Part shown: piece by piece, positions 17,127 to 39,935 of the stretch
Layout: every line of letters starts with the position of its first letter
Numbering within the stretch: position 1 is the first letter of the stretch
DNA from: Candidatus Xenobia bacterium
GTDB taxonomy: Bacteria > Vulcanimicrobiota > Xenobia > Xenobiales > QWHO01
Direction: 5' to 3'
Assembly (NCBI GenBank): GCA_045863235.1
Contig: BTUM01000022.1
Coordinates: forward strand, 1 to 64,000
DNA: 64,000 nucleotides
Made by a program: the position numbers and the translations under genes
Notes under the pieces: generated by a model
The model's input: the letters and a program-made list of their open reading frames with translations, nothing else
The model's database searches: none
Told to the model about the DNA's origin: nothing

Positions 17127-18761
17127 TCAGCGCAGCAGGCGTCGGCTCAAAGCGTGCGGGACGCCCGGGGGCGGATCCAGCTCCACCGACTGGTCCCAGC
17201 GCTCGCTGGTCATGCCCGGGGGCACGCAGTAATCCGCGCGCACGTACCAGGGAGAGCGACCGGTGGCCAGCTGGGAGGGCTCGTTGTCAAGGGTGGCCAT
17301 GGTGCGAAAGTCGAGCCAGCAGGTGCCGCCCACCCGGGCCAGCTCCTGGCCCGTCCAGTCCTCCAGGAAAGCGTACTGGCGCGGCCGCTCGTTGCTGGGC
17401 ACGTAGTAGGGCGAGCCCGGCACCTGGCTGCGCAGCAGGCCCTCGCGTGGCTGCAGGCCCTCCACCACCAGGGCGTTGCACTCGATCGTGTCGGCCGGAT
17501 CGCCGGCAAAGAGGGGGGGATCGGAGGCGGGGGGGTTCACGGTGGAGTAGCTGGCGGCGTCGTTGAAGCCCGAGGAGAGCAGCCACACCGAGTCGCGCGC
17601 GATCAGACCCACCGAGCGCTTGCGCAGCGCTCCGGTGGCATCGCGCTCCTTGTTGAAGTCGCCCTGGATGTAGAGCGAGGCGTTGCACATCACGGTCAGG
17701 TTGGCCGGCAAAAAGTGAGCGTTCTTGAGGCGAAGCGGTCCCTCGCTGTAGAGCATGCCATTGGACGGGAAGCCCCCGGCGCTGATCAGGGCGGCCACAT
17801 CCAGGTCCTTGACGCGCACCTCGCGCCCTTCGGCCTGGTTGAAGAAAGCGGCATCGGCGCTGCCGGCCAGCAGCTGGATCTGAGCCTGGCTCGCGAAATA
17901 GCCCGAGGGCAGCAGGCAGCTGGCCCGGGGCGCCGGCAAACGCCTGGCTCCCAGGCGAGCGTCGCGCACCACGCCCCCGTAGCGGCTGAGGGCCTGGCGG
18001 GTCCACTCGCTCCAGCGCGAGTCGTAGTAGCTGTTGCGCCGGGTCAGCTCGGCAAAGATGCCGTCGGGCCGCAGCACCTGGACGTACGACATGGGACCGC
18101 CCCCGCTGCACTGGATCTCATCGGCGGCCGAAACGGTGGGTCCGTAGAAGGCCACCGGCGCGCCGCTGAAGAGGCGGTGGTAGACGCGCAGATCGCCGTT
18201 GGCGTGGACCGGGCCGTGCACCTGGTAGGGGATCCAGAAGGGGCCCTGGCCCACGATGACCCCGTCGCCGTCGGCGAAGAAAGCATAGCGGGTGAGCGGC
18301 TCCAGGTCGCCCTCCAGGCTGCGCTCGGCGGAGTGGGTCCCCCAGCTTGCCCGGCTCACAATGCGGAAGCTACGGGCGTCCGGCCGGGTCACCCGGATGC
18401 GGAAGCTCTCGCTCTGGCCGGTCCCGGTCAAGGAGAGAGCTGGATCGTCGCCCGGGTCCCAGCGCCACTCCCACCAGCCGTCCGAACGGCGGGTCACTCC
18501 TGGAAACAAGGGCGGCGCCCCGGCCGCCGGGGTGCCGTCGCTCTGGTGGGTCACGGCGTAGCCCCCGCTGTCGCGGAAGGCAGCGAAGGCGGCCTCCAGG
18601 CCTGTCTCGGCGAGATACTGCAGGCGGGTCTGCACCACCCGCATGTGCGCCTCGCGCCGGGTGGCCCCGGCTCGCTCCATGACCAGGGCAAGCGAGAGCA
18701 AGAAGATCGGGATCAGGCTGATGGTCACGAACAGGGTCAGGCCCCGGCGGTCAGGGCGCAT
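17127..18761 (-). CDS. PilX-like large minor pilin
   Basis: RRG|LTLFV class III signal lacking E5; YLAETGLEAA; GPVHANGDL; LYIQGDFN. Confidence 0.75.
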   Translation of the reverse strand: MRPDRRGLTLFVTISLIPIFLLSLALVMERAGATRREAHMRVVQTRLQYLAETGLEAAFAAFRDSGGYAVTHQSDGTPAAGAPPLFPGVTRRSDGWWEWRWDPGDDPALSLTGTGQSESFRIRVTRPDARSFRIVSRASWGTHSAERSLEGDLEPLTRYAFFADGDGVIVGQGPFWIPYQVHGPVHANGDLRVYHRLFSGAPVAFYGPTVSAADEIQCSGGGPMSYVQVLRPDGIFAELTRRNSYYDSRWSEWTRQALSRYGGVVRDARLGARRLPAPRASCLLPSGYFASQAQIQLLAGSADAAFFNQAEGREVRVKDLDVAALISAGGFPSNGMLYSEGPLRLKNAHFLPANLTVMCNASLYIQGDFNKERDATGALRKRSVGLIARDSVWLLSSGFNDAASYSTVNPPASDPPLFAGDPADTIECNALVVEGLQPREGLLRSQVPGSPYYVPSNERPRQYAFLEDWTGQELARVGGTCWLDFRTMATLDNEPSQLATGRSPWYVRADYCVPPGMTSERWDQSVELDPPPGVPHALSRRLLR

Positions 18762-19395
18762 TGCGAAGCTCCGAAAGCAGTTCCAGGCTGCCAGAGGTCA
18801 CCGGCCCGCGCTCGCTCACCTTGCGATAGGTCAGTTCAAAGCTCGCGAGGCGGTCCGTGACCGACCAGCGCACGGTCAGCGAGCCCGGCTCGAGATAGAC
18901 TGCGTAACGCCGCTCGTTGCCGCCGGTGGCCAGGGCCAGGTCGAGCTGATCGGGAGCCAGGCGCGGGCAGGCTACGGCCGGTTTCTCGTAGAGCACCAGG
19001 TCGAGCGCCTGCGGGTTGCGCGGGTCGGGCGGGGTATGCGGCTGTGCTGACAGGGCCACCACCGTGACGGTGCCGCCGCTCGGCTCCGGGATGGCCGCCA
19101 CCAGCGTCTCCCAGCTGGTGGAGGGCAGGCCGGGGAAGCGGTAGAGCTGGCTTCCCAGGGTCACATCGGGGGCGTCCCAGACCACGAAGGCGGCGGCCGA
19201 AAGGAGATCGTCCAGACGGCGCGTCAGCAGGGCCTGCTCGCGAGCCAGCTCCCAACTGCCGGCGCGGGCTCGCTCGACGGTGCGCAGGGTGCTCCAGACG
19301 CCCAGGATGGTGGCCATCATCAGGCCGAACAGACCGGCCACCAGCAGCACCTCGGCCAGGGTGTGAGCGCGCCTCACGGGGGGCGAGGGCCTCAT
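18751..19395 (-). CDS. Minor pilin (PilW/GspJ-like)
   Basis: RRA|HTLAEVLL prepilin motif; ATGA overlap with upstream gene. Confidence 0.75.
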   Translation of the reverse strand: MRPSPPVRRAHTLAEVLLVAGLFGLMMATILGVWSTLRTVERARAGSWELAREQALLTRRLDDLLSAAAFVVWDAPDVTLGSQLYRFPGLPSTSWETLVAAIPEPSGGTVTVVALSAQPHTPPDPRNPQALDLVLYEKPAVACPRLAPDQLDLALATGGNERRYAVYLEPGSLTVRWSVTDRLASFELTYRKVSERGPVTSGSLELLSELRNAP

Positions 19396-19760
19396 CGCCA
19401 CAGGGTGCGCGTCAGGCGCACCAGCGGGGGGCGGCCGGGCCGGGGCACCGCTCCGGCCACGGCCGGGTCGGCCGGCCAGACCACGGCAGTGGCTCGCTTG
19501 CAGCCGAAGGTGAGGGGAGTGACGGAAAGCTCCACCACCAGCTGCCCGTGGCGCTTGCGGGCCTGGCTGGCAGCCGAGGGGTAGTCGGTCAGCGCTTCGA
19601 GCTGGTTGCGGGCCAGGCGGTGGGCCTGGGACAAGAGCCGGCCCTGCTCATCCATGCGCTGAGCCTGCAGGCAGGCGGCCAGGACCGCCAGGGCATAGAC
19701 CAGCAGGACCGCTCCCGAGAGCACCAGCTCGGCCAGGCTGAGTCCGCGCGAACGCCGCAT
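19392..19760 (-). CDS. Minor pilin (PilV/GspI-like)
   Basis: MRRSRG|LSLAELV prepilin motif, hydrophobic helix, AHRLARNQLE. Confidence 0.75.
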   Translation of the reverse strand: MRRSRGLSLAELVLSGAVLLVYALAVLAACLQAQRMDEQGRLLSQAHRLARNQLEALTDYPSAASQARKRHGQLVVELSVTPLTFGCKRATAVVWPADPAVAGAVPRPGRPPLVRLTRTLWR

Positions 19761-25047: not shown

Positions 25048-26064
25048 TTGGGACGAACGCTGGCGCTCTTCACCCGGGGCCTGGCCACGCTGGTGAGCAG
25101 CGGGGTGCCCCTGGGCCGAGCGCTGCAGGTGATGGCCGCTACCCGGGTGCTACCCGAGGAGGTGGCGGACGGCCTGATCGGGACGCTGCTCCGAGGGCAC
25201 TCGTTATCGGACGGTTTCAAGGCCTACCCCGCGCACTTCCCCACCTCCTACGTGGCGGCCGTGCGAGCCGCCGAGGGCACGGGCGCACTGGTGGAGGTGC
25301 TGCTGCGCCTGGCCGATCAGACCGAGAAATCGGCACGGCTGCGCCACCGGCTCCTGAGTCAGCTCAGCTATCCGGTGGTGCTGCTCATCTCGTGCGGGCT
25401 GGGGTTAGCGGTGCTGGTGCTGGGGTTTGTGCCCATGATGCTGCCGATGCTGGAGCAGTGGAATGCGCCCGCGCCCTGGCTGCTGGTCACTTTGACGGGC
25501 CTGGCCCGCAGCCCGGTGACCTGGGTGATGCTGGGATTGGGGCTGGTCAACCTGTTGCTGGCCGTCCTTTTGCTGCAACGCCGACCGGCGCTGCGATCGG
25601 CCCTGGAGCGCTCGTCGGCGAGCTGGCCACTGGTGGGAGGGGTGCGCCTGCGCCTGGCCCGGCTGCAGGCGCTGGACACGCTGATCTTGCTCCAGGAGGC
25701 GGGGGTGCCAGCCCGCACGTGCCTTCTGGAGGCGGCCCGAGGGCAGAGTCACGCCGAGCTGGCCGCCCGGCTGCGCGAGGCCGACGCGGCCCTGCTGGAA
25801 GGGGCTGAGCTGACTGCGGCCTTGCGCCAGGCGCGGGTCTTTAGCCCGCCCGCACTGCAGCTCTTGCTGGCGGGTGAGGCCGCCGGACGCCTGGCGCGGC
25901 TGATGCGCTGCGCGCGCAAGCTGGAGGAGGATGCCCTGGAGGCTCGCATCGAGCTGCTGGTCACCTTGAGCGAGCCCCTGGTACTGAGCGTGATGGGGCT
26001 GGCGGTCGGGCTGGTGACGCTGATCACCCTGATGCCGATGCTCACCTTGTTGGCCCGGCTCTGA
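25048..26064 (+). CDS. pilC: Type II secretion system F / PilC platform protein
   Basis: FTRGLATLVSSGVPL, AAEGTGAL, LSYP, AGEAAGRL, EPLV; three TMs. Confidence 0.88.
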   Translation: MGRTLALFTRGLATLVSSGVPLGRALQVMAATRVLPEEVADGLIGTLLRGHSLSDGFKAYPAHFPTSYVAAVRAAEGTGALVEVLLRLADQTEKSARLRHRLLSQLSYPVVLLISCGLGLAVLVLGFVPMMLPMLEQWNAPAPWLLVTLTGLARSPVTWVMLGLGLVNLLLAVLLLQRRPALRSALERSSASWPLVGGVRLRLARLQALDTLILLQEAGVPARTCLLEAARGQSHAELAARLREADAALLEGAELTAALRQARVFSPPALQLLLAGEAAGRLARLMRCARKLEEDALEARIELLVTLSEPLVLSVMGLAVGLVTLITLMPMLTLLARL

Positions 26065-26118: not shown

Positions 26119-29082
26119 TCAGATGGTCTTGCAGACGCGCTGCACCTCTTCCAGCGTCACCTTGCCCTCGGCCACCTTCAGCAGCCCGTCCTGGTAGAGG
26201 GGACGGAAGCCCTGGGCCATGGCCACCTGGCGGATCTCCTCCTCGCTGGCGGCGCGGTTGACCAGGGCCCGCACCTCGGGGGTGATCTCCAGCATCTCGT
26301 ACAGGCCCAACCGGCCGCGGTGGCCCGTGTTGTGGCACTTCTGGCAGCCGGCGCCGCGAAAGACGCGGGGCTGGCGGAAGCCTTCCCGGGCCAGCAGCTC
26401 GGCCACCTCGGAGGTGGGGCGCTCCTCCACCCGGCACTCGGTGCAGATGCGCCGGGCCAGGCGCTGGGCCACTCCGCCGAGCAGGGTGGAGCCGATCAGG
26501 AACGGCTCGATGCCCATGTCGCGCAGGCGGGCGATGATGCCCACCGAGTCGTTGGTGTGGATGGTGCTCAGCAGCAAGTGTCCGGTCAGGGCCGCCTGGA
26601 CGGCGATCTGGGCCGTCTCCACGTCGCGGATCTCGCCCACCAGGATGACGTCCGGATCCTGACGCAAGAACTCGCGCAGCACGCGGGCGAAGGTGACGCG
26701 CTTCTCCTCCTCGCGGGGGGCGGTGTTGACCTGCACCTGGCAGATGCCGGGCATCTGGTACTCGATGGGATCCTCCACCGTCAACAGCTTGCGGTCGGGG
26801 CGCTGGATCTGCTTGAGGCTGGCATAGAGCGTGGTGCTCTTGCCCGAGCCGGTGGGCCCGCACACCAGGATCATCCCGTAAGGCTGCGAGAGAATGTGGT
26901 CGTAGCGGCCCCGGGTGTGGGGGGAGAAGCCCAGGTCGGCCAGCGTGAGGTTGAAAGCGCCCTTCTTGAGCAGGCGCATGACCACGCTCTCGCCGGCGGG
27001 CACGGGCACCACGCTCACGCGCAGGTCCAGCTCTTGCCCGGCCACCTTGAGCGAGATGCGGCCGCCCTGAGGGATGCGCTCCTGGGCGATGTCCATGTTG
27101 GCCATGACCTTGATGCGCTTGACCATGGCCGAGGCCTCGCGAGCCGGGAAGCTGTTGATGGGGTGCAGCACGCCGTCCACGCGATAGCGAAGCTCCGCCC
27201 CCTTCTCGTAGGTCTCCATGTGGATGTCGGAGGCGCCCGCCGAGATGGCTTCCTTGATGAGCCGATCGACCGCGTCCACGATGGGGCTGGTGATGTCCTC
27301 GGCACCGAAGGCCACGTCGGCCATCGGGTTGGCGACCTCCAGCGATTCGGTCTCCAGCTTCTTGCGCTCGAGCCACTCCAGCCAGGTTTGCCCGCCGGGG
27401 TAGCGGTAGCAGTATTCCAGGGCCAGGTCGATGAGCAGCGCGTCGGCGCGCAGCAACTGGGGACGGAACTGGCCCTGGCTGGCCAGGGAGATGTGGTCGT
27501 AGATGTGGATCTGGGTGGGATCCTTCACCGCCACCACCACCTCCTGGGGCGAGGGGCGGCCGATGCAGACGCCCTGGATCGAGCGCGAAACGGTCTCGGG
27601 CAGCACCCGGGCCACCTCGGGGTCGAGCTGAACCTGGGCCAGGTCGACGCTGGGGAGATCCACCTCGCTCACGAACTGGCCCGACTCGGGCGTGGCCCGC
27701 ACGACGGCCTCCTTCTTGTGGCTCAGCAGGATGTGCCAGGCCCCCAGCTTGCTCGCCACCATGCCAAAAAAGCCCTTCTTGCCGGGCGCGGCGGGGGCGG
27801 GCAGGCCCTCGCTGCTCTCGGTCATCGGCCCCTCGACGGGCTTGCTCAAAGCTTCGTAGATCTGGGCCACCGAAGCAGGCCGACGGCTCATCTCGGGCTC
27901 GTGCAGCCAGGCCACCACCGAGGCGAGGCGGGGGCCGAGCTGTTCGAGGCGAGGCATGTCCACGGCCCCGAACAGCCGGTCCACGGCCCGGGGCGGAGCC
28001 TGACCGGTGGTCAGGAAGTGGAGGATGGAGGCCACCGCGTAGAGGTCGTTGCCGGGGTGGCTGGGCTCGCCCAGGAGCTGCTCGGGGGCGGCGAAGTTGG
28101 GCGAGCCTTGCGAGCGGAAAGCGGTGCCGCTCTTGTCTGCCGACGATTCGCGCATGCGGGCCAGGCCAAACTCGACCAGCTTGAGCACTCCGTGGGGGGT
28201 CACCAGAACCGTTTCGGGGCGAAGGTCACGGTGGACGATGGGGGGATCTTGTCCGTGCAGATACTCGAGCACCGACAGGAACTGCTCGAGGTAGCGCTGG
28301 ATCAGCTCGGGGGGCTGGGGCCCATCGGACTTGACCACCTCGGCCAGGGTGCGGCCGGAGAACTCCTCGAGCACCAGGTAGATGCCGGTGCGGTCTTCGA
28401 TGACCTCCATCACCCGGGGCAGGTTGCGGTGCTGCAGCCGAGCGAGCAGGCGCCCCTCGCGCAGGGTCTGCATGCGGGCCTCGCGGGTGGCCGACTCGGG
28501 GTCGAGTCGCCGCAGGCGCAGGGGGGTGCCGTTCGAGCGGTCCTCGGCTTCGTAGAGGGTGGAGAAGCGGCCCAGCATCATCTGGCGGTGGACGACAAAG
28601 CGCCCGCCGACCAGCTTGGGCACCTCGACCGGCTGGGCCTCGAAGCTCTCCTGCGCGGCAGCCTCGGGGGGAGGGGCCATGCGCAGCAGGGCGGGGGTCA
28701 TCTTCTGGGCGTAGAGATGGGTGCGCTCGAGCGCCTCGATGTCAAAAGCCTGCTGGGGTTTGGAGCGATGGGCGTAGAGCAGGCCCAGCACCCGTCCTTC
28801 GTGGAGAATGGGCACGCACAGGGCGGTGTGCTCGAGGTTGCTGGGGGTGCGCACGTCGGGAGCCTTCTTCTTGCACACCGAGCGCACCAGCACCAGGTCC
28901 AGCGCCGCTCCGCTCCACACCTCGTCGGGATGCACGCCGCGCACGTCGGCCACGGCATACTCGCCGTCCCACAGCTCGTCGTGCAAGATCACGCCGCGGT
29001 CGGCTTGCAAGGTGCTGGTCATGTAGTCCAGGGCACCCTGCCACAGCTGCTTGAGGTCGGTGGCGTTGGAAAGGGTATCCAT
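26119..29082 (-). CDS. GAF-like + Ser/Thr pseudokinase + PilB/GspE assembly ATPase fusion (987 aa)
   Basis: ALCVPI...LGLLY (GAF-like); HRDLRPET/EFG/APE kinase fold; ASDIH, GPTGSGKST, VEDPIE, LRQDPDVILVGEIRD, STIHTND, CxxC...CxxC. Confidence 0.92.
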   Translation of the reverse strand: MDTLSNATDLKQLWQGALDYMTSTLQADRGVILHDELWDGEYAVADVRGVHPDEVWSGAALDLVLVRSVCKKKAPDVRTPSNLEHTALCVPILHEGRVLGLLYAHRSKPQQAFDIEALERTHLYAQKMTPALLRMAPPPEAAAQESFEAQPVEVPKLVGGRFVVHRQMMLGRFSTLYEAEDRSNGTPLRLRRLDPESATREARMQTLREGRLLARLQHRNLPRVMEVIEDRTGIYLVLEEFSGRTLAEVVKSDGPQPPELIQRYLEQFLSVLEYLHGQDPPIVHRDLRPETVLVTPHGVLKLVEFGLARMRESSADKSGTAFRSQGSPNFAAPEQLLGEPSHPGNDLYAVASILHFLTTGQAPPRAVDRLFGAVDMPRLEQLGPRLASVVAWLHEPEMSRRPASVAQIYEALSKPVEGPMTESSEGLPAPAAPGKKGFFGMVASKLGAWHILLSHKKEAVVRATPESGQFVSEVDLPSVDLAQVQLDPEVARVLPETVSRSIQGVCIGRPSPQEVVVAVKDPTQIHIYDHISLASQGQFRPQLLRADALLIDLALEYCYRYPGGQTWLEWLERKKLETESLEVANPMADVAFGAEDITSPIVDAVDRLIKEAISAGASDIHMETYEKGAELRYRVDGVLHPINSFPAREASAMVKRIKVMANMDIAQERIPQGGRISLKVAGQELDLRVSVVPVPAGESVVMRLLKKGAFNLTLADLGFSPHTRGRYDHILSQPYGMILVCGPTGSGKSTTLYASLKQIQRPDRKLLTVEDPIEYQMPGICQVQVNTAPREEEKRVTFARVLREFLRQDPDVILVGEIRDVETAQIAVQAALTGHLLLSTIHTNDSVGIIARLRDMGIEPFLIGSTLLGGVAQRLARRICTECRVEERPTSEVAELLAREGFRQPRVFRGAGCQKCHNTGHRGRLGLYEMLEITPEVRALVNRAASEEEIRQVAMAQGFRPLYQDGLLKVAEGKVTLEEVQRVCKTI

Positions 29083-29148
29083 GCTCGAGCGGTTCCCCGA
29101 AAGTCGGGGGGGAACCTTTCTGGGGGACCAGAAACTGACTTCGAGCCG

Positions 29149-31227
29149 ATGGACAGGAAGAAGCTGCGCTTCGACGAGGATTCCCCGCTGCCCGACCGCT
29201 TCGAGCTGCTCTCGGAGGTGGGTCGGGGAGGCATGAGCGTCGTCTACCGCGCTTTCGACCGCGAGCTCGAGCGGGAGGTGGCCGTCAAGCTCTTGCCCGA
29301 GGGGGCCCGGGGCGGGCCGCTCAGCGAGCGCTATCGGCGCGAGGCGCGCGAGCTGGCGCGCTTGAGGCACCCCAACGTGGTGGGGCTGCTGGGGGAAGGG
29401 GTGCACCGGGGGCGCGACTACCTGGTGCTGGAGTATGTATCGGGAGGCGACTTGCGCCGCTTCCTGCAGCGCCCCCGGCCCCGGGCCGAGCTGCTGAGGC
29501 TGTTCGAGGGGGTGAGCCGGGGACTGGCCGAGCTGCACGCACTGGGCCTGGTGCACCGGGACATCAAGCCGGAGAACGTGCTGATCGGAGCGGACGGAGA
29601 GGCCCGGCTGAGCGACCTGGGGCTGGTGCGCTCGTTGGACTCCAAGACCCACCTGACCACCGAGGGGGCGCTGGTGGGAACGATGTGCTACCTGGCACCC
29701 GAGCAGATCGTGTCGGGCGAGCTGTCGGCCGCGGCCGATCTCTATGCGCTGGGGGCCTGCCTGTATGAGGCGCTGGTCGGTGCGCCGCTGTTCGAGGGGC
29801 GCACCGAGTTCGAGATCATGCAGCACCACGTGCGCGACGAGCCGGTGGCACCGGGCGACCGGTTGAACGGTCTGGACGGGCGGCTGAACGAGCTCGTGCT
29901 TCGGCTCGTCAGCAAGGACCCGGCGCTGCGGCCGAGCGCCGAGGAGACCGCGGACATCCTGGGCGAGTGCCTGCGAACCCCCGCTCCGACCGCGCCGGAG
30001 CCGGACGCGGCCGTGGGCGCGGTCGAAGTGCGGTCGGCGGTCGAGCCGGGGCCGGTCTTGGTGGACGCGGTCGAGGCTCTGGCGGAGTCGGAGGCGGCGC
30101 CGGTCGAGCCGGGGCCGGTCGTGGTGGGCGCGGTCGAAGTGCGGTCGGCGGTCGAGCCGGGGCCGGAGTTGGTCGGCGCGGTCGAGGCTCGGGCGGAGTC
30201 GGAGGCGGCGCCGGTCGAGCCGGCGCGACGCAGCCTGGTGGCTCCGCTGGTGGCTCTCTTCGTGGTGGTCTCGCTGCTGGTCGGTTACGGAGCCACGGGG
30301 CGCTACAAGCGGCTGGCGCTCGACTCGGAGCCGCACGGGGCGGCCGTCAGCCTGGATGGCCGGCCGGTCGGGCACACGCCGGTGAGGCTAGACGGCCTGG
30401 CGCTGGGGCGCCACCAGCTACGGCTGGAGAAAGCCGGCTACATGCCCTACTCCGAGTCGGTGGAGCTGGCCGTGGGGCAGATCCACCCCCCTCGCACCAT
30501 CGCCCTGCAGCCAGCGGCTCGTCTGCCGCTGGAGCTCACTCCCTCCGACACTCAGGTGCTGGTGAACGGCAAGAGCGTCTCCCTGACCGATGGGGCCCTG
30601 GAACTGGCGCCCGGAAGCTATCGGCTGGAGCTTCGGCGGGCCGACCATCTGCCTCAGACCCGTCAGGTGAGCCTCGTTGCGGGCGACAACCCGGCCCTGG
30701 CGATCGCCTTGAAGAGCAGCCAGGAGTCGCGACTCAAGGTGCTGGCCCCGGCCGGGGCGAGGATACTGCTCGACGGCCAGCCGCTCAAATCAGAGACGGT
30801 GCGTCCGGGGAAGCACGAGCTGGTGGTGCGAAAGAGCGGCCATCGCGAGCACCGCCGGAGCCTGGAGCTCGATCCCGGGGCAGAGCTCGAGGTCAGGGTT
30901 GCTCTCGAGCCTGCCGCCCCCAGCCTGAAGGTCACCGCTCGACCCGCAGCCACGGTCTATCTCAACGGGGTCGAGCGAGGGCGGACGCCGGTCAGCCTGA
31001 CCGGGCTCACGCCGGGAGCCTGTGAGCTGAAGCTGACCGCGCCCGGCTACCAGACCGCCCGTAAGAAGCTCAACCTGAGCCCTGGAGCCACCCGCAACCT
31101 GGCCTTTCAGCTCGAGCCTCTGCCTCCCCCGGAGCCGGTGTACGAGGCTCCGGCCGGACCGGCCTGGTATCCGCCCCCGGCACAGGACCCTCCAGCCCCC
31201 GGCCCGGTGGCCACGCCCGACGAGTGA
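29149..31227 (+). CDS. Membrane Ser/Thr protein kinase with PEGA domains
   Basis: GRGGMS, VAVK, HRDIKPEN, DLG, YLAPE; one TM; SEPHGAAVSLDG..GHTP and VYLNG..RGRTP PEGA repeats. Confidence 0.92.
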   Translation: MDRKKLRFDEDSPLPDRFELLSEVGRGGMSVVYRAFDRELEREVAVKLLPEGARGGPLSERYRREARELARLRHPNVVGLLGEGVHRGRDYLVLEYVSGGDLRRFLQRPRPRAELLRLFEGVSRGLAELHALGLVHRDIKPENVLIGADGEARLSDLGLVRSLDSKTHLTTEGALVGTMCYLAPEQIVSGELSAAADLYALGACLYEALVGAPLFEGRTEFEIMQHHVRDEPVAPGDRLNGLDGRLNELVLRLVSKDPALRPSAEETADILGECLRTPAPTAPEPDAAVGAVEVRSAVEPGPVLVDAVEALAESEAAPVEPGPVVVGAVEVRSAVEPGPELVGAVEARAESEAAPVEPARRSLVAPLVALFVVVSLLVGYGATGRYKRLALDSEPHGAAVSLDGRPVGHTPVRLDGLALGRHQLRLEKAGYMPYSESVELAVGQIHPPRTIALQPAARLPLELTPSDTQVLVNGKSVSLTDGALELAPGSYRLELRRADHLPQTRQVSLVAGDNPALAIALKSSQESRLKVLAPAGARILLDGQPLKSETVRPGKHELVVRKSGHREHRRSLELDPGAELEVRVALEPAAPSLKVTARPAATVYLNGVERGRTPVSLTGLTPGACELKLTAPGYQTARKKLNLSPGATRNLAFQLEPLPPPEPVYEAPAGPAWYPPPAQDPPAPGPVATPDE
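30013..30222 (+). repeat. 111-bp in-frame duplication in the kinase juxtamembrane linker
   Basis: VGAVEVRSAVEPGP.LV.AVEA.AESEAAPVEP occurs twice. Confidence 0.9.
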
Positions 31228-31340: not shown

Positions 31341-33116
31341 CTAATGAGAATCCCACCATCCCAGCCCTTCGGGAACCTCGATCGACAGGCTCTTCTGGTC
31401 CACCCCGTGGGCCAGCAGCACCCGGTCGAGCCGCTCGTCGCTCATGGCTCGTGAAAACCATAGCAGGGCTTCCTCACGGGGGCTAGCCCCCCGCTCCAAG
31501 AGCGCCTCGATGGCGGAGATTCGCGCCTGGTCCAGGGCTGCGGAGCGCAGGGTCGTTCGCAGGGCCAGGTGGCAGAGCTGGGAGAGCACCTCGCTGGGGT
31601 CCGGCCCCTCCTCCAGCAGCGCCTCCAGGACGGACCGGTCGAGCTTCCAGTAGCTGGCGGCATGCAGGGCCGCGCTGTGTCCGTCCCGGTCGCGGGCCAG
31701 TCGGTCGGCTCCGGCCGAGAGCAAGAAGGGGACGCTGCGAGCCGCGGCTGGCGTCCCGGCGGCCAGCATCAAAGCGGTGAGCCCCGCTCCATCGGCCGCT
31801 TCCAGCCTGGCCCCAGCCCGCAGCAACTCCTCGGCCGTCTCCAACTGGCCACAGCAGACCGCCAGGGCCAGGGCGGTTCGACCCTGGTCGTCTCGAGTCT
31901 CCAGGTCGGCTCCCCGGGCGACCAGCCACCGGAGGGTGTCCCGCTGGCCCGCCACGGCCGCGGCCATCAGGGGTGTCTGGCCGGCCCAGCGCTCCTCGGG
32001 GCCCAGGCCGGCCCCGCGCTGCTCGGCGCCCAGGCCGGCCTCGCGCTGCTCGGGGCCCAGGCTGGCCCCGCGCTCCTCGGCGCCCAGGCCGGCCCCGCGC
32101 TCCTCGGGGCCCGGGCCGGCCCCGAGCAGGGCCTCCAGGATAGCCGTCCGCCCCAGAGAGGCCGCCAGCGACAGGGCCAGGGCTCCGCCCACCGGCGGAC
32201 GGGAGAGCGCCTCCAGCAGCCGCCGCACGGCAGCCAGATTGTCTCGACTGACCGCCTTGTGCAGCGCGCTGTGCCCGTTCACGTCCACCGCTTCTGGATC
32301 GGCCCCCAGCTCGAGCATACGGCTCACCAGCTCGACCTCTCCCACCGCGCCCATCAGGGGGGTTTCTCCCGCCCCGTTGCGTCCGTCCAGACGGGCCCCG
32401 TTCTCGAGCAGCCACTCCACCGCCTCGGTCCAGCCGCCACGCGCGGCCGCCAGCAGGGCCGCGCCGGTGGGCTCGGCGCCCCGCTCCACCAGCTCCTTCA
32501 TCAGGTCCATCCGGCCTTTACTGGCAGCCATTTCCAGCAGTGTGGGCCAGGTCGTGGAGCGGGCCCGCTTGACCTGAATCTCGGATCCCCCCTGGACCAG
32601 GGCCAGGACGCAGTCGCAGCAGTCGGTATCCGCGACGGCCGTCGCCCCGTCGGCCGTCGCGAGATTCGGATCAGCGCCCGCTGCGAGCAGGGCCCGCACC
32701 GCCTGGCAGTGGCCCAGGTAGGCCGCCTCCATCAGGGCGGTTCGCCCACGGGCGTCGCGGGCGTTTACCGGTGCCCCCTCTTTGACCAGCAGCTTGATGG
32801 TCTTGCTCTGATCGCCCACCGCTGCCGCCCGGAGGGCCGTCCAGCCGTCTTCGTCAGAAAAGTCGACCGGCGCTCCCGCTTCCAGCAAGCGAATCACGGC
32901 CGGGACCTGCCCCCTGCGACTTGCTTCCAGCAGCGCCTTACCCAGCTCTTCGCGCGACCAGTCCCGTTGCGCCAGGACAGCGGGCAGGTCGGACGGGATC
33001 GCTTCCACCAGCTCCAACGGGTAGCCGGCCGACTGCAGGGCGCGGCGGAGGGCGGCCGGGTCCGGCTCCGGGCCGAGCTCCTGGGCCATCTTCACCAGCC
33101 GGGCGATGCTCTTCAC
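31341..33116 (-). CDS. Ankyrin repeat protein
   Basis: Multiple GxTALxxAA...LLxxGAD repeats. Confidence 0.9.
   Translation of the reverse strand: MKSIARLVKMAQELGPEPDPAALRRALQSAGYPLELVEAIPSDLPAVLAQRDWSREELGKALLEASRRGQVPAVIRLLEAGAPVDFSDEDGWTALRAAAVGDQSKTIKLLVKEGAPVNARDARGRTALMEAAYLGHCQAVRALLAAGADPNLATADGATAVADTDCCDCVLALVQGGSEIQVKRARSTTWPTLLEMAASKGRMDLMKELVERGAEPTGAALLAAARGGWTEAVEWLLENGARLDGRNGAGETPLMGAVGEVELVSRMLELGADPEAVDVNGHSALHKAVSRDNLAAVRRLLEALSRPPVGGALALSLAASLGRTAILEALLGAGPGPEERGAGLGAEERGASLGPEQREAGLGAEQRGAGLGPEERWAGQTPLMAAAVAGQRDTLRWLVARGADLETRDDQGRTALALAVCCGQLETAEELLRAGARLEAADGAGLTALMLAAGTPAAARSVPFLLSAGADRLARDRDGHSAALHAASYWKLDRSVLEALLEEGPDPSEVLSQLCHLALRTTLRSAALDQARISAIEALLERGASPREEALLWFSRAMSDERLDRVLLAHGVDQKSLSIEVPEGLGWWDSH
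31981..32122. repeat. 27-bp in-frame tandem repeat x5 inserted in an ankyrin repeat
   Basis: G(P/A)E(E/Q)RGAGL units. Confidence 0.88.
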
Positions 33117-35302: not shown

Positions 35303-36811
35303 TTAGCGACGACCCGCGGTTTGGCCAGAGGTCTCTTGAGCCGTGGCCAGGTCCTGGAGCAGTTGGGTCAGTGCCCGCCGCGCATAGCCCCTCATGGCTT
35401 CGGGGGGCGCCACCACGCGCACTCGGAGCCGTTTCTTGCCGAGATAGGAGAGCAGAACGCGGACCGCGCGGTCTGCCCGAAAGGCGCGCAAGAAGGCCTT
35501 GGATTCCTCGCTCCACAAAGCTCCGAAGCACTCCCAGTAGTCCGGGTCGGGTGGGTTCATCCTGGGCCCACCCTTGAGGCGGGGAGGAAGCGTGCAGGAG
35601 GGCCAGTCATTGCGCGCCAGCCCGCGCAGGAGCGGTGGCAAGGCCGACATCACGGCTCCCTGCTCGAGCCAACTGGCGGCTTCGTTGTAGTGTCGTCTCC
35701 AGTCCCTGTCCGGAAGCTTGCGAAACTGCTCCCGGGCCTCCGAATACCTGCCGGCTCGATGGAGCGCCGAGCCGAGCGCTTCCCGCGCGTGAGTCTCGCT
35801 GCAACGTCTGACCCTTTCAGTAAGCCAGATGCTGGCATCCTCCCAGCGCCCCTGCTCGGCCAACGCTCGGGCCAGTCCGTCCAGAGCGCGCAGGTATCCT
35901 TCGGCGTCCGGATCGCCTGGATGGAAAACCCGCCGACCCATTGGCAGTCGGTGAGAGTCCAGCATACAGGCTTGTCGATAGGCCTTCTCGGCTCCCTTCC
36001 AGCGCGAGTGCCTCGACAACAGGTCGCCTTCCAGTCTCCAGAGGCCTCCATCCCATGGTCTGAGCCGTTGCGCCCGCCGCAAGTGGCTGCGAGCCGACTT
36101 CCAGCTCTGTTCCTCCAATTCCATCGCCAGAGTAAGCTCGCGCTCAACTCCCGCGGATTCTGACGGAGCAATTTCGCCCAGACTCGTCATCAACTCGTTC
36201 AGGTCATTGCCGGCCAGCCGGAGCACTTCCGGGTTGCTCTCCCGGTTGATCAAGCGGCGCACCCTTCCCAACGCGCGTCGAAGAACCGCCACACGAGCGC
36301 CGACTTCTTCGGCGCCTTCCCCCGAGCCAAGATTCGGCGTCGCCCCCAGTTGGTGCCCCCGAGTCCTGACTCTGGTCCCTTCCCTGCTGCTCGGGCTCGA
36401 GCTCGAAATCGACCGCGCACTCGGCTGCGCGCTCGACTTCGCACTCGCACTCGAACTCGCACTCGAACTCGAACTCGCACTCGCACTCGCACTCGCACTC
36501 GAACTCGAACTCGAACTCGAACTCGAACTCGCACTCGCACTCGAACTCGAACTCGAACTCGAACTCGGGATTTGCGTTCTGGATTCTCGTTCCAGCGCTG
36601 TCAGGAACTTCGCGCGCAGGTCTGCCCAGTTGACCTGTACGTTCGAGAATCGAGTCTCGACGCTTTGTCGCAGCTCGTCCCACTGGTTGAGACAGGCCTG
36701 AAGGCCCCCCACTCCGAGGAATCGTTGGACGGTAACGTGACGGACCCGAGTCGAGCCCTCGCGATAGCTGTGCAGTAACAAGAACTGCCGACCGATCTTC
36801 CTCAAGAACAT
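35303..36811 (-). CDS. TPR-containing protein with poly-Ser linker and IS1634-transposase-like N-terminus
   Basis: Start MFLRKIGRQFLLLHSYREG; TPR-like YLRALDGLARALAEQGRWEDA and LGSALHRAGRYSEA; weaker GC3 bias than neighbours. Confidence 0.7.
   Translation of the reverse strand: MFLRKIGRQFLLLHSYREGSTRVRHVTVQRFLGVGGLQACLNQWDELRQSVETRFSNVQVNWADLRAKFLTALERESRTQIPSSSSSSSSSASASSSSSSSSSSSASASASASSSSSASSSASAKSSAQPSARSISSSSPSSREGTRVRTRGHQLGATPNLGSGEGAEEVGARVAVLRRALGRVRRLINRESNPEVLRLAGNDLNELMTSLGEIAPSESAGVERELTLAMELEEQSWKSARSHLRRAQRLRPWDGGLWRLEGDLLSRHSRWKGAEKAYRQACMLDSHRLPMGRRVFHPGDPDAEGYLRALDGLARALAEQGRWEDASIWLTERVRRCSETHAREALGSALHRAGRYSEAREQFRKLPDRDWRRHYNEAASWLEQGAVMSALPPLLRGLARNDWPSCTLPPRLKGGPRMNPPDPDYWECFGALWSEESKAFLRAFRADRAVRVLLSYLGKKRLRVRVVAPPEAMRGYARRALTQLLQDLATAQETSGQTAGRR
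36439..36567. repeat. Hexamer microsatellite (TCGMAC)n, about 21 copies
   Basis: tcgcac/tcgaac units; encodes Ser/Ala on the minus strand. Confidence 0.95.
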
Positions 36812-36820
36812 GCGACAGAG

Positions 36821-36855
36821 TGAGTAGTGATAAGATAGATAATTTTCACTACACA
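36821..36855. promoter_or_regulatory. AT-rich inverted repeat directly upstream of the TPR gene
   Basis: TGAGTAGTGATAA-N9-TTTTCACTACACA; 11/13 arm match. Confidence 0.55.
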
Positions 36856-36891
36856 TTGTTCTGTCCGGGACGATAGTTGACCTCCCGCCGA

Positions 36892-37223
36892 CTGGTAACG
36901 GCCAGCGGGCCCAGATAGGAGCACGGAGGGGCCCAGTGGTCGGTGCACGTTCAAGTTCGGGCCGCCTGGTAACGGCCCGCGGTTCCAGATAGAGGGCACA
37001 GAGAGGCGCAGTGGTCGGTGCAAGTTCAAGATCGGGCCGCCTGGTAGCGGCCAGCGGGTCCAGATAGAGGGCACGGAGAGGGCGCAGTGGTGGGTGCAAG
37101 TTCAAGATCGGGCCGCCTGGTAGCGGCCAGCGGGTCCAGATAGATGACACGGGGAGGACGCAGTGGTGGGTGCAAGTTCAAGATCGGGCCTCCTGGTAGC
37201 GGCCAGCGGGTCCAGATAGAGGG
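36892..37223. repeat. Tandem array of 74-76-bp units (about 4.4 copies), probably non-coding
   Basis: Units start CTGGTA at 36892, 36966, 37041, 37117, 37193. Confidence 0.93.
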
Positions 37224-38763: not shown

Positions 38764-39186
38764 ATGAGCATGCGGCGAGGCATCACGCTGATGGAGACCA
38801 TCCTGGCCTTCTTCATCATGGCCGTGGCCTTCGTGGTGCTCTTTGCGGTCTTCTCGGGAGGCTATCGAGCGGCCGTCCAGAGCCGCAACCGGACCGTGGC
38901 CATCCTGTATGCTCAGAGCTTGCTCGAGGAGATTCGGGCTCACCCTTACGGCCAGCCCGCCCCTCAGTCCTGGACGACGCCCGCGGCCCGCCCGGTGGAC
39001 GTGATCGTGGAGGGCCGAAAGCAGCATTACGAGTTCGCCCAGCAGCTCAGCTACGCCAACTCGAGCTTCATCGGGCTGTCGGATCACGACGCCGACGAGG
39101 TGACCATCACCCTGAAGTGGCGCGAGGGCGTGGGCAACAATCCCACTCAGAAAGAGCTCGTCATCAAGACGGCGGTGTGGCGATGA
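38764..39186 (+). CDS. Prepilin-type minor pilin (PilV/GspI-like)
   Basis: MRRG|ITLMETIL; AILYAQSLLEEIR. Confidence 0.82.
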   Translation: MSMRRGITLMETILAFFIMAVAFVVLFAVFSGGYRAAVQSRNRTVAILYAQSLLEEIRAHPYGQPAPQSWTTPAARPVDVIVEGRKQHYEFAQQLSYANSSFIGLSDHDADEVTITLKWREGVGNNPTQKELVIKTAVWR

Positions 39187-39935
39187 AGCGGGGATTCACC
39201 CTGTATGAGCTGCTGGTCGGCTCGGGCATCGCTTTCGCCGCCCTGGCTCTGATCGTCTCGCTCTTCATCATCGGTCGGCGAACCTCAGAGGCTGCCTACT
39301 CCAACTACCTGGTCAGCCGCGACACCGAGAATGGCATCGCCTGGCTGCGCCGCGATCTGCAGAACGCCTCGCTGGCCAGCATCCGGGTCTATCCCGGCCC
39401 GGCCGCCCCCGGGGAACGTCCGGGCCTCTCCCTGGCCAGTTGCGCCCCGCCTGACCAGCCCACCCGGGTGAGTCTCAATCCGCACGGAGTGCCCCGCTGG
39501 TCTTCTCAGGTCTACTACACCCTCGACCCGGTGGACGACAAGACGGGCCGCCTGATGCGCTGGAGCGCCCCCACCCCCGCCGACCAGCTGTTGCCGCTGC
39601 CCTCCGGCACGATGCCCTCCGCGGTCAATGACCCGCGGGTGCTGTTGCACAACGTCCTCTTGCCCAACGTGAGCGTGTTTCAGGGCGGGGATCCGGGCAC
39701 CACCGACGCCCGTGGCGGCTTCCGCGCCCAGTTCGTGCGCAGGGCCGGCGGCGAGGCGGGAGCCGAGTCGCTCTCGGACACCAATCCCTCCCAGGTCTCC
39801 CTGAGCCCCGCGGGTGGTCTGCAGCCCTCCGGCAACACCCGGCTCGTGGAAGTGGAGCTGCGCTTGCTGCACCGCTCCACCACCGGCAAGCCCAGCGTCT
39901 ACGCCATCCGCTTCCGCGTCTGCCCGCGTTACTGA
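39183..39935 (+). CDS. Prepilin-type minor pilin (PilW/GspJ-like)
   Basis: MKRG|FTLYELLV; LRRDL; ATGA overlap. Confidence 0.82.
   Translation: MKRGFTLYELLVGSGIAFAALALIVSLFIIGRRTSEAAYSNYLVSRDTENGIAWLRRDLQNASLASIRVYPGPAAPGERPGLSLASCAPPDQPTRVSLNPHGVPRWSSQVYYTLDPVDDKTGRLMRWSAPTPADQLLPLPSGTMPSAVNDPRVLLHNVLLPNVSVFQGGDPGTTDARGGFRAQFVRRAGGEAGAESLSDTNPSQVSLSPAGGLQPSGNTRLVEVELRLLHRSTTGKPSVYAIRFRVCPRY

Follow-up and report, generated by a model that had tools for sequence, protein, structure and literature searches.

A filament motor fused to a pseudokinase is encoded in a 64,000-nucleotide stretch of DNA from Candidatus Xenobia bacterium, a member of the little-studied phylum Vulcanimicrobiota (GenBank assembly GCA_045863235.1, contig BTUM01000022.1, positions 1 to 64,000), hereafter called the window. 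The protein, P0001, is read from position 29082 to 26119 on the minus strand and comprises 987 residues from its ATG. It joins a GAF domain, a Hanks-type kinase fold, an N1E (MshEN_C) domain and an ATPase of the PilB/GspE type. On-off switching of PilB/GspE motors is known mainly through cyclic di-GMP (c-di-GMP), by way of MshEN or FimX-PilZ, and here a pseudokinase occupies that regulatory slot. The fusion is real, conserved and, as far as literature searches reached, undescribed. We regard it as a variant of the regulated PilB/GspE motors with an apparently new pseudokinase family, judged by the descriptions of the seven reviewed ones. We lean towards the pseudokinase being a docking adaptor that replaces MshEN_N and recruits a GAF-HD-GYP-like protein, called GAF-HD below, to the motor.

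A sequence-only reading of this DNA had described a single 987-residue open reading frame (ORF) joining a GAF domain, a kinase fold and a complete PilB/GspE ATPase; the ORF and its Pfam matches agree with this, and every motif quoted there was found at its place. Pfam matches GAF at residues 9-119 (30.4 bits, cut-off 22.4), Pkinase at 168-402, MshEN at 475-561 (23.5 bits, cut-off 23.1) and T2SSE at 598-982, the MshEN match being a domain absent from that earlier account. On the minus strand of the window, the GAF domain (residues 9-121, assigned by Pfam) lies at 28720-29058, the pseudokinase (residues 156-415, assigned by motifs, fold model and structure match) at 27838-28617, the alpha-beta N1E/MshEN_C domain (residues 475-561, Pfam and alignment) at 27400-27660 and the ATPase core (residues 598-982, motifs and Pfam) at 26137-27291. 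The kinase-fold motifs are MLGRFS at residue 169, LRLR at 188 (beta3 Arg191), HRDLRPET at 284 and EFG at 304, followed by the activation segment SGTAFRSQGS at 318 and APE at 332. Those of the ATPase are Walker A GPTGSGKS at 742, an Asp box at 768, Walker B GEIRD at 816, a His box at 840 and CxxC pairs at 880 and 913, the tetracysteine motif.

The fusion is real and no misassembly, a possibility the earlier reading had raised. In run X1, which may be the source sample, a single gap-free contig covers 26892-29948, and in run X2, from another study, contigs bridge both the GAF/kinase and the kinase/N1E/ATPase junctions. Moreover, the ORF is intact in same-genus genomes at 98% and 82% identity. 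Short contigs of RNA run X6 lie over the locus, which is no demonstration of transcription.

The kinase-like domain has been called a pseudokinase from its motifs, and this is well borne out. Its model shows a Hanks kinase fold (predicted local distance difference score, pLDDT, 90; predicted template modelling score, pTM, 0.89) and superposes on PknB (1mru) with Z 27.5 and a root-mean-square deviation of 2.0 over 240 aligned residues. Fold searches yielded generic kinases only, and the ESM Atlas generic kinase clusters only. At the positions of the beta3 Lys, HRD Asp, catalytic-loop Asn and DFG Asp of an active Hanks kinase the window's protein reads Arg191, Asp286, Thr291 and Glu304; its Gly-rich loop is MLGRFS (xRFS) and its activation segment has TxFR. 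A pseudokinase is defined, in the accessible part of the review PMC12599244, as a kinase fold missing at least one of the Lys, the HRD Asp and the DFG Asp; here two of the three are lost. Three protein searches gave 351 proteins, of which 103 have both the kinase fold and T2SSE; these 103 fusions, among them that of the window, represent clusters formed at 90% or 50% identity, and three of them are gapped in the N-lobe. None of the 103 has the canonical Lys, Asp, Asn and Asp together. The substitutions themselves are conserved among the aligned fusions: Arg172 (100/100), Phe173 (95/100) and Ser174 (96/100) in the Gly loop, beta3 Arg191 (97/100), alphaC Glu209 (98/100), Arg288 (92/100), EFG (93/101, DFG in 6/101) and Thr320 (99/101). 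The canonical beta3 Lys and the catalytic-loop Asn each occur once in 100. In comparisons with two same-genus genomes the ratio of nonsynonymous to synonymous substitution (dN/dS) comes to 0.03 and 0.18 in the pseudokinase, much as in the ATPase (0.03 and 0.13). Fixed replacements under purifying selection argue for a conserved pseudokinase rather than a decayed kinase.

From the established chemistry of the beta3 Lys, the catalytic-loop Asn and the DFG Asp, the domain is apparently catalytically dead. It is very improbable that it is an atypical active kinase, or another nucleotidyl-transferase, modifying its own ATPase ring or PilC. Such a role would fit the retained alphaC Glu, APE and Asp346/Arg401, as well as the HRD Asp, which is present, as had been noted, in the window's protein and in 98 of 100 fusions; the HRD Arg is kept in as many. 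Pseudokinases with new chemistry do exist, SidJ and SelO being examples in the consulted part of PMC12599244. Against it, the beta3 Lys and the catalytic-loop Asn are almost never found and all four residues never together, the P+1 Thr is not conserved, and the HRD Asp is lost across a deep clade (7/66 non-redundant domains), which has Gly there and an intact ATPase.

A domain-architecture search, as the earlier reading had proposed, yields a Vulcanimicrobiota family of fusions. A 25-sequence profile, with at most 42 candidates scored per genome, found the pseudokinase in 26 of 61 relatives' genomes: in 4/5 of the window's own family, in 15/16 of family f2, 0/19 of f3 and 2/3 of f4, and also in f5, f7, f11 and f17. 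Three weaker profile rows (214-221 bits) and one at 249 bits are active-type kinases. Names in the protein searches agree with this range except for one Armatimonadetes and one Proteobacteria label; the ten close matches listed comprise six Vulcanimicrobiota or Eremiobacterota, three entries named 'bacterium' and one Burkholderiales. Pattern scans of genomes and metagenomes were no census, as 70 of 80 and 74 of 80 matches listed were ordinary kinases at 30-39% identity, and in the 50%-representative search multi-kinase proteins dominate among the 150 matches listed. In a tree of 38 rows the pseudokinases form one clade (support 100/99), weakly sister (81/85) to a Vulcanimicrobiota active-type kinase, L240, which already has RDLRP, a TLFR activation segment and the alphaG Arg.

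The N-terminus varies within the family. GAF precedes the pseudokinase in 38 of the 103 fusions, a degenerate MshEN_N-like helix does so in 31, and 32 begin directly with the pseudokinase, some of which may be fragments; these classes overlap. The family core is therefore pseudokinase-N1E-ATPase with GAF as an optional domain, and a GAF ligand as the built-in input, as first suggested, is not borne out in that form. Within this genome, the GAF of the fusion is most closely related to GAF domains joined to PilC. The pseudokinase module is portable, since it also occurs in ATPase-less GAF-pseudokinase-N1E proteins, in stand-alone and FHA-GAF forms and in fusions with decayed ATPases. In six of the last (P0034, P0037, P0041, P0174, P0180 and P0183) the ATPase motifs are decayed and the pseudokinase is intact; several decayed-ATPase fusions have an extra MshEN domain ahead of the pseudokinase. 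Conversely, some relatives have an N1E-ATPase without pseudokinase (L047, L049-L054). At L047:3355-5034 (genome G043) such an ATPase lies in the same cluster with a linker remnant and a GNAT gene ahead, and the absence of the pseudokinase looks like secondary loss. This genome also encodes an ATPase-less GAF-pseudokinase-N1E paralogue at C8:126257-129841 (L236:8258-11842), followed by two GAF-HD genes and lying 2.5 kb from a pilM-pilB-pilC operon, an arrangement conserved in the genus; its role may be to control the neighbouring PilB in trans or to serve as a decoy. The pseudokinase-less N1E-ATPases and the decayed ATPases of P0037, P0041, P0180 and P0174 are what one would expect if a kinase passenger had been fused by chance and were now decaying. 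Such an origin, or an assembly artefact, is exceedingly improbable, given 103 fusions over several families in a single clade, the low dN/dS (0.03-0.18) and junctions bridged in two studies.

The motor half is well preserved. The ATPase matches PF00437 with 436 bits and has all traffic-ATPase motifs; in the family, the Walker A motif GPTGSGKST is intact in 97 of 103 members. The fusion falls under the curated cut-offs for TIGR02533 (523.7 vs 630.25) and TIGR02538 (491 vs 675.65), and in a quick tree fused and unfused sister ATPases form their own clade, apart from the other PilB/GspE genes of the genome. Two family-specific features were seen in the ATPase: at residues 671-675 PQDGR reads PQGGR, and after the QVQVN strand, at 787-795, a charged stretch of five residues is inserted. 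The ATPase core and N1E/MshEN_C are common to the fusion and Geobacter PilB (5ZFR/5TSG), Vibrio GspE (4PHT) and V. cholerae MshE, but where these carry an N-terminal MshEN the fusion carries the pseudokinase. The alignment to Geobacter PilB begins only at Geobacter residue 76 (E about 1e-117). The c-di-GMP-binding MshEN_N motif, RLGxx(L/V/I)(L/V/I)xxG...LxxxLxxQ in the available part of PMC5013675, was not found in the window's protein, which has the MshEN_C part only. Judged by sequence, the fusion lacks the MshEN_N helices that bind c-di-GMP and the pseudokinase stands in that slot. The MshEN N-terminus inhibits C. thermophilum PilB (PMC6957770, as far as that text was available). 

Regulatory extensions at the N-terminus have precedents: Supplementary Table 4 of PMC5013675 lists GAF-MshEN-T2SSE and REC-MshEN-T2SSE architectures and a Pkinase-MshEN-UNK-REC protein of Myxococcales, and no Pkinase-T2SSE. 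The genome has three secretin matches and three full-length PilM matches; it has 42 PilC/GspF genes vs 9 PilB/GspE-type ATPases.

The fusion gene is clustered with pilC, a gene for a GAF-HD protein of 310-340 residues and three minor-pilin-like genes, and the order PilC - GAF-HD - fusion - minor pilins recurs throughout the order, the class and the phylum. The counts refer to 29 fusion loci from 26 genomes, two of the loci extended and several flanks short. Of these, 22 have PilC, in two cases possibly not the orthologue, 13 have GAF-HD, and 15 have V/W-like pilin genes within 6.3 kb. GAF-HD also stands at all four loci of the ATPase-less GAF-pseudokinase-N1E paralogue and at none of the seven where an unfused sister ATPase is encoded. 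The cluster is scattered in this genome, with pilC and GAF-HD on contig C66 and a large pilin-like gene on C15, so that the partner lay beyond the view of the first reading. Two minor-pilin-like genes of 140 and 250 residues at 38764-39935 (plus strand) are a remnant of it, recognised by homology to fusion-flanking genes in relatives; N_methyl matches were found on their homologues and none on the window's two. The PilC on C66 shares 40-51% identity with cluster PilCs. Another PilC/GspF paralogue (25048-26064, plus strand; Pfam, identity) converges on the fusion, probably incidentally; as one of 42 pilC genes, with 23-27% identity to cluster PilCs, it was rejected as the cognate platform.

Cluster-type GAF-HD (at least 282 bits; next tier at most 202) occurs in 21 of the 61 genomes. 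All but one of these 21 have the pseudokinase, the exception being 64% complete. GAF-HD is derived from HD-GYP proteins (E 1.2e-21 to PmGH, PDB 4MCW), and the five PDB relatives identified for it are named phosphodiesterases or sensor proteins. It has the GAF and HD-GYP architecture in common with PmGH and differs in D305, K225, D183/E185 and the GYP loop. Equivalents of H189, H221, D222, H250 and H277 are present in 18/18 and of H276 in 17/18, whereas D305 is Glu in 18/18, K225 occurs in 3/18, and D183/E185 are absent. The GYP Tyr is found in 0/18, the loop is deleted in 10/18, and no R314/K317 motif was seen. PmGH activity is abolished by D183A or K225A, according to the accessible part of PMC4159591. 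With these catalytic residues lost, GAF-HD lacks the marks of an active HD-GYP c-di-GMP phosphodiesterase and, by its residues, is probably not an ordinary one. A more canonical GAF-HD-GYP gene lies directly beside another pilB at C53:25795-28453; this pairing is common in relatives of the phylum and is possibly the ancestral arrangement.

A complex of fusion residues 156-580 with the C66 GAF-HD protein was modelled together with three controls. It scored 0.61, the best control 0.08; among reference pairs, 116 of 157 solved complexes and 2 of 215 mismatched ones attain the mark for this score, numbers that are only approximate here as our own alignments were used. The runs agree in at least 49% of contacts, with a partner pLDDT of at least 81. 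On the kinase the predicted interface takes the hinge side (residues 186-188, 219-225, 239-242 and 295-299) and on GAF-HD residues 192-200 and 296-320. Its centre is the TPHGV loop, residues 295-299 (28186-28200, minus strand), and its second part an amphipathic linker helix with Trp449, residues 442-453 (27724-27759, minus strand). The model supports binding of GAF-HD by the pseudokinase. We know of no solved kinase/HD-GYP complex.

Residues at this interface follow the partner. His297 is found in 22 of 25 loci of partner-bearing genomes, in none of seven loci of five partner-less f4/f11/f17 genomes and in one of 78 active kinases of this genome; the Trp helix is present in 24 of the 25 and matched in none of the seven. 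Left out of these 25 and 7 are two FHA/GAF-type paralogues (Gln, Gln), G029 (His) and one metagenome locus (Arg). On the GAF-HD side Asp195 (17/18), Ser197 (18/18) and Ala313 (18/18) are kept. The f11/f17 clade, nested among partner-bearing lineages, has lost the partner together with His297, the Trp helix and the HRD motif.

The fusion would then power assembly in a type IV filament module particular to this lineage, consisting of PilC, the ATPase and three minor-pilin-like proteins and building either a pilus or a secretion pseudopilus. The pseudokinase and the Trp helix behind it would form a built-in docking adaptor in the MshEN_N slot and recruit the co-inherited GAF-HD to the motor. The bound partner might respond through its own GAF or its metal/nucleotide site and set ATPase activity or assembly at PilC; that docking regulates the ATPase is inferred. 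The first reading had proposed a docking or phospho-switch module coupled to a neighbouring PEGA kinase, and of this the docking part is retained as our preferred explanation.

Several observations weigh against docking. Cluster-type GAF-HD was not found in 6 of the 26 pseudokinase genomes (completeness 78% in one of them and 61% in another), which means that a fusion need not have it, and none of the three such GAF-HD genes of this genome adjoins the fusion. GAF-HD is always beside pilC and has moved with pilC in the genus, so PilC could be the main partner. Close cousins of a true partner also pass the complex test, and the basal L043 has an adjacent GAF-HD, yet neither His297 nor the Trp helix. 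The co-variation of residues amounts to about two lineage contrasts (f4; f11 with f17) among kin that are not independent, and both profiles, for pseudokinase and GAF-HD, were built from these same genomes. In the full-length model of the fusion the domains fold without confident packing (pTM 0.37), part of the ATPase being poorly modelled. Finally, the invariant arginines of the ATP cleft lie outside the interface, and an adaptor role alone leaves them unexplained.

These arginines raise the possibility of a nucleotide sensor, in which Arg172, Arg191 and Arg288 bind ATP or a second messenger without Mg2+, the ligand input replaces MshEN_N, and GAF-HD makes, holds or destroys the ligand locally. 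We think this rather improbable, and it can coexist with docking. It would account for the replacement of lost catalytic residues by fixed basic ones, next to a kept Glu209, and the predicted docking at the hinge side leaves the cleft free; the arginine-lined DLHK and ActPs2 pseudokinases are predicted to bind ATP independently of metal (PMC12599244, part available). On the other hand, Phe173 could fill the pocket, as in MviN (same source), and GAF-HD is without the residues that PmGH needs for c-di-GMP hydrolysis.

Phosphorylation is the other possible input. The canonical Ser/Thr kinase with a transmembrane helix and PEGA repeats, described as divergent from the fusion at 66 bp, is indeed there: P0002 (29149-31227, plus strand; Pfam, motifs) has 692 residues, Pkinase at 19-267, three PEGA stretches and one hydrophobic helix at 363-381. 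The PEGA kinase stands head-to-head with the fusion at only 3 of the 29 loci, all of the window's genus, and in G002 (65% complete), whose fusion is 98% identical, it is cleanly missing from the spot. PEGA-clade kinases lie about 3 kb upstream at two loci and about 8 kb downstream at three, of one other genus, and one also adjoins the unfused sister L049; those near other loci fall in other paralogue subclades. Unrelated kinases occur within 5 kb at three fusion loci, and none was seen in the examined flanks at 18 of 29. A dedicated kinase partner is not supported, as no orthologous kinase is co-inherited, and the PEGA kinase was rejected in this role. It was also rejected as the source of the pseudokinase by duplication, the PEGA-kinase clade (100/99) lying far from the pseudokinases in the tree.

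Some association with kinases is nevertheless real, since it exceeds the background: 11 of 29 loci have an active-type kinase no farther than about 9 kb away, and 8 have one of the PEGA clade, as against 19% and 0.9% of random positions in this genome within 10 kb. Phospho-control in general is thus left standing. An active Hanks kinase, here the PEGA kinase, could phosphorylate Thr320 and gate the motor, with either the HRD Arg in cis or an FHA protein in trans sensing the phosphate. We hold such a switch, which can coexist with docking, to be possible though unlikely. The near-invariance of Thr320 and the HRD Arg agrees with it. Three other pseudokinase paralogues (L223, L238 and L239) are head-to-head with active kinases; L238:7220-10000 and L239:5171-7909 encode GAF-pseudokinases without N1E or ATPase. 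P0188 joins FHA to GAF-pseudokinase, likewise without N1E or ATPase, and the genome has 27 FHA matches. Of the 42 pilC genes, ten have an active-type kinase domain no more than 600 bp away, as against a background of 3% at 1.5 kb. Five of these ten are GAF-PilC fusions, and their GAF belongs to the closest relatives that the motor fusion's GAF has in this genome; five of the ten are recent paralogues sharing one operon type. Against a phospho-switch stand the rarity of the head-to-head PEGA kinase, its loss in G002 and the different clades of the neighbouring kinases. Moreover, the active-type L240 already has the TxFR segment, which also persists in proteins without the HRD Arg; its role may therefore be structural.

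The three inputs may also be combined: the hinge would dock an HD-GYP-derived sensor, the Arg cleft would bind a nucleotide messenger metal-free, and phosphorylation of Thr320 would switch the module. We consider this unlikely. If true, Ser/Thr kinase signalling and a second messenger would meet on the motor itself, in a lineage with tens of PilC paralogues wired to kinases.

The docking adaptor we prefer has parallels in known systems. In the Xanthomonas FimX-PilZ-PilB system an inactive c-di-GMP-turnover protein reaches PilB via an adaptor (PMC8042644, accessible part), and docking would work alike; here, however, the adaptor is a motor-fused kinase fold, the partner is HD-GYP-derived and not GGDEF-EAL, and there is no homology. 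EssB/YukC of type VIIb secretion and MviN (ActPs3; PknB, FhaA) are pseudokinase scaffolds on envelope machines, and MviN, phosphorylated by a neighbouring kinase, recruits an inhibitor (PMC12599244, sections available). They are membrane proteins with all motifs degraded and shortened activation loops, whereas the fusion's pseudokinase is a soluble domain of Vulcanimicrobiota kinase descent in which HRD, APE and the whole activation loop are retained. ActPs2 and DYD have, like the fusion, Arg for the beta3 Lys; DLHK has an arginine-rich cleft and keeps the HRD Asp; CP1 is likewise linked to an ATPase domain and GAF. DLHK, ActPs2, DYD and CP1 differ in their phyla and in partner domains (helicase, COG3899, transmembrane). 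Compared by eye with the review's descriptions of ActPs1-3, GLW, CP1, DYD and DLHK, the fusion has no GLW/DYD motif and keeps the alphaC Glu, and it has no COG3899, helicase or transmembrane partner.

No T2SSE-fused pseudokinase is among these seven families in the available part of the review. A term search for pil, secretion, GspE and T2SS gave no match in the accessible main text of the bioRxiv pseudokinase atlas preprint, and the parts of PMC9259500 and PMC11484240 available hold nothing on a kinase-T2SSE fusion. Literature searches, at the level of titles and opening lines of abstracts, found no such fusion; one might still be listed in the supplements of the bioRxiv atlas, which they did not cover. 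Thermus PilF is known to be phosphorylated, as cited in PMC10145908 (part available). The family, with its fixed basic substitutions, offers a testable predicted interface between a kinase fold and an HD domain, down to individual residues. As soluble domains of small size, the two lend themselves to binding, ligand and ATPase assays without growing the organism, and the natural variants without GAF, partner, ATPase or pseudokinase serve as controls.

Between the fusion and the PEGA kinase no sigma-70-like promoter was found. An 8-bp inverted repeat with a variable 10-base loop lies 8 bases before the fusion ATG (29091-29116, no strand assigned; genus comparison). Its stems are invariant in four genomes and kept across the genus even where the PEGA kinase is gone (G002), and it could be a translational hairpin. 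As a regulon operator it was rejected, having two genome matches vs 0.56 expected, neither of which precedes a pilC, GAF-HD or pilin gene. At 17127-19760 on the minus strand there is another group of three pilin-like genes (544, 214 and 122 residues; no Pfam match), after which come genes for a histidine kinase and a REC-TPR-BTAD regulator and then the pilC paralogue; this group is not beside the fusion in same-genus relatives. An ORF with a long Ser/Ala low-complexity tract and a lower G+C of 0.63 (35303-37150, minus strand) is missing from the equivalent position in relatives. An ankyrin-repeat protein whose gene (31341-33116, minus strand) converges on that of the PEGA kinase contains a 9-residue tandem repeat whose copy number varies between runs.

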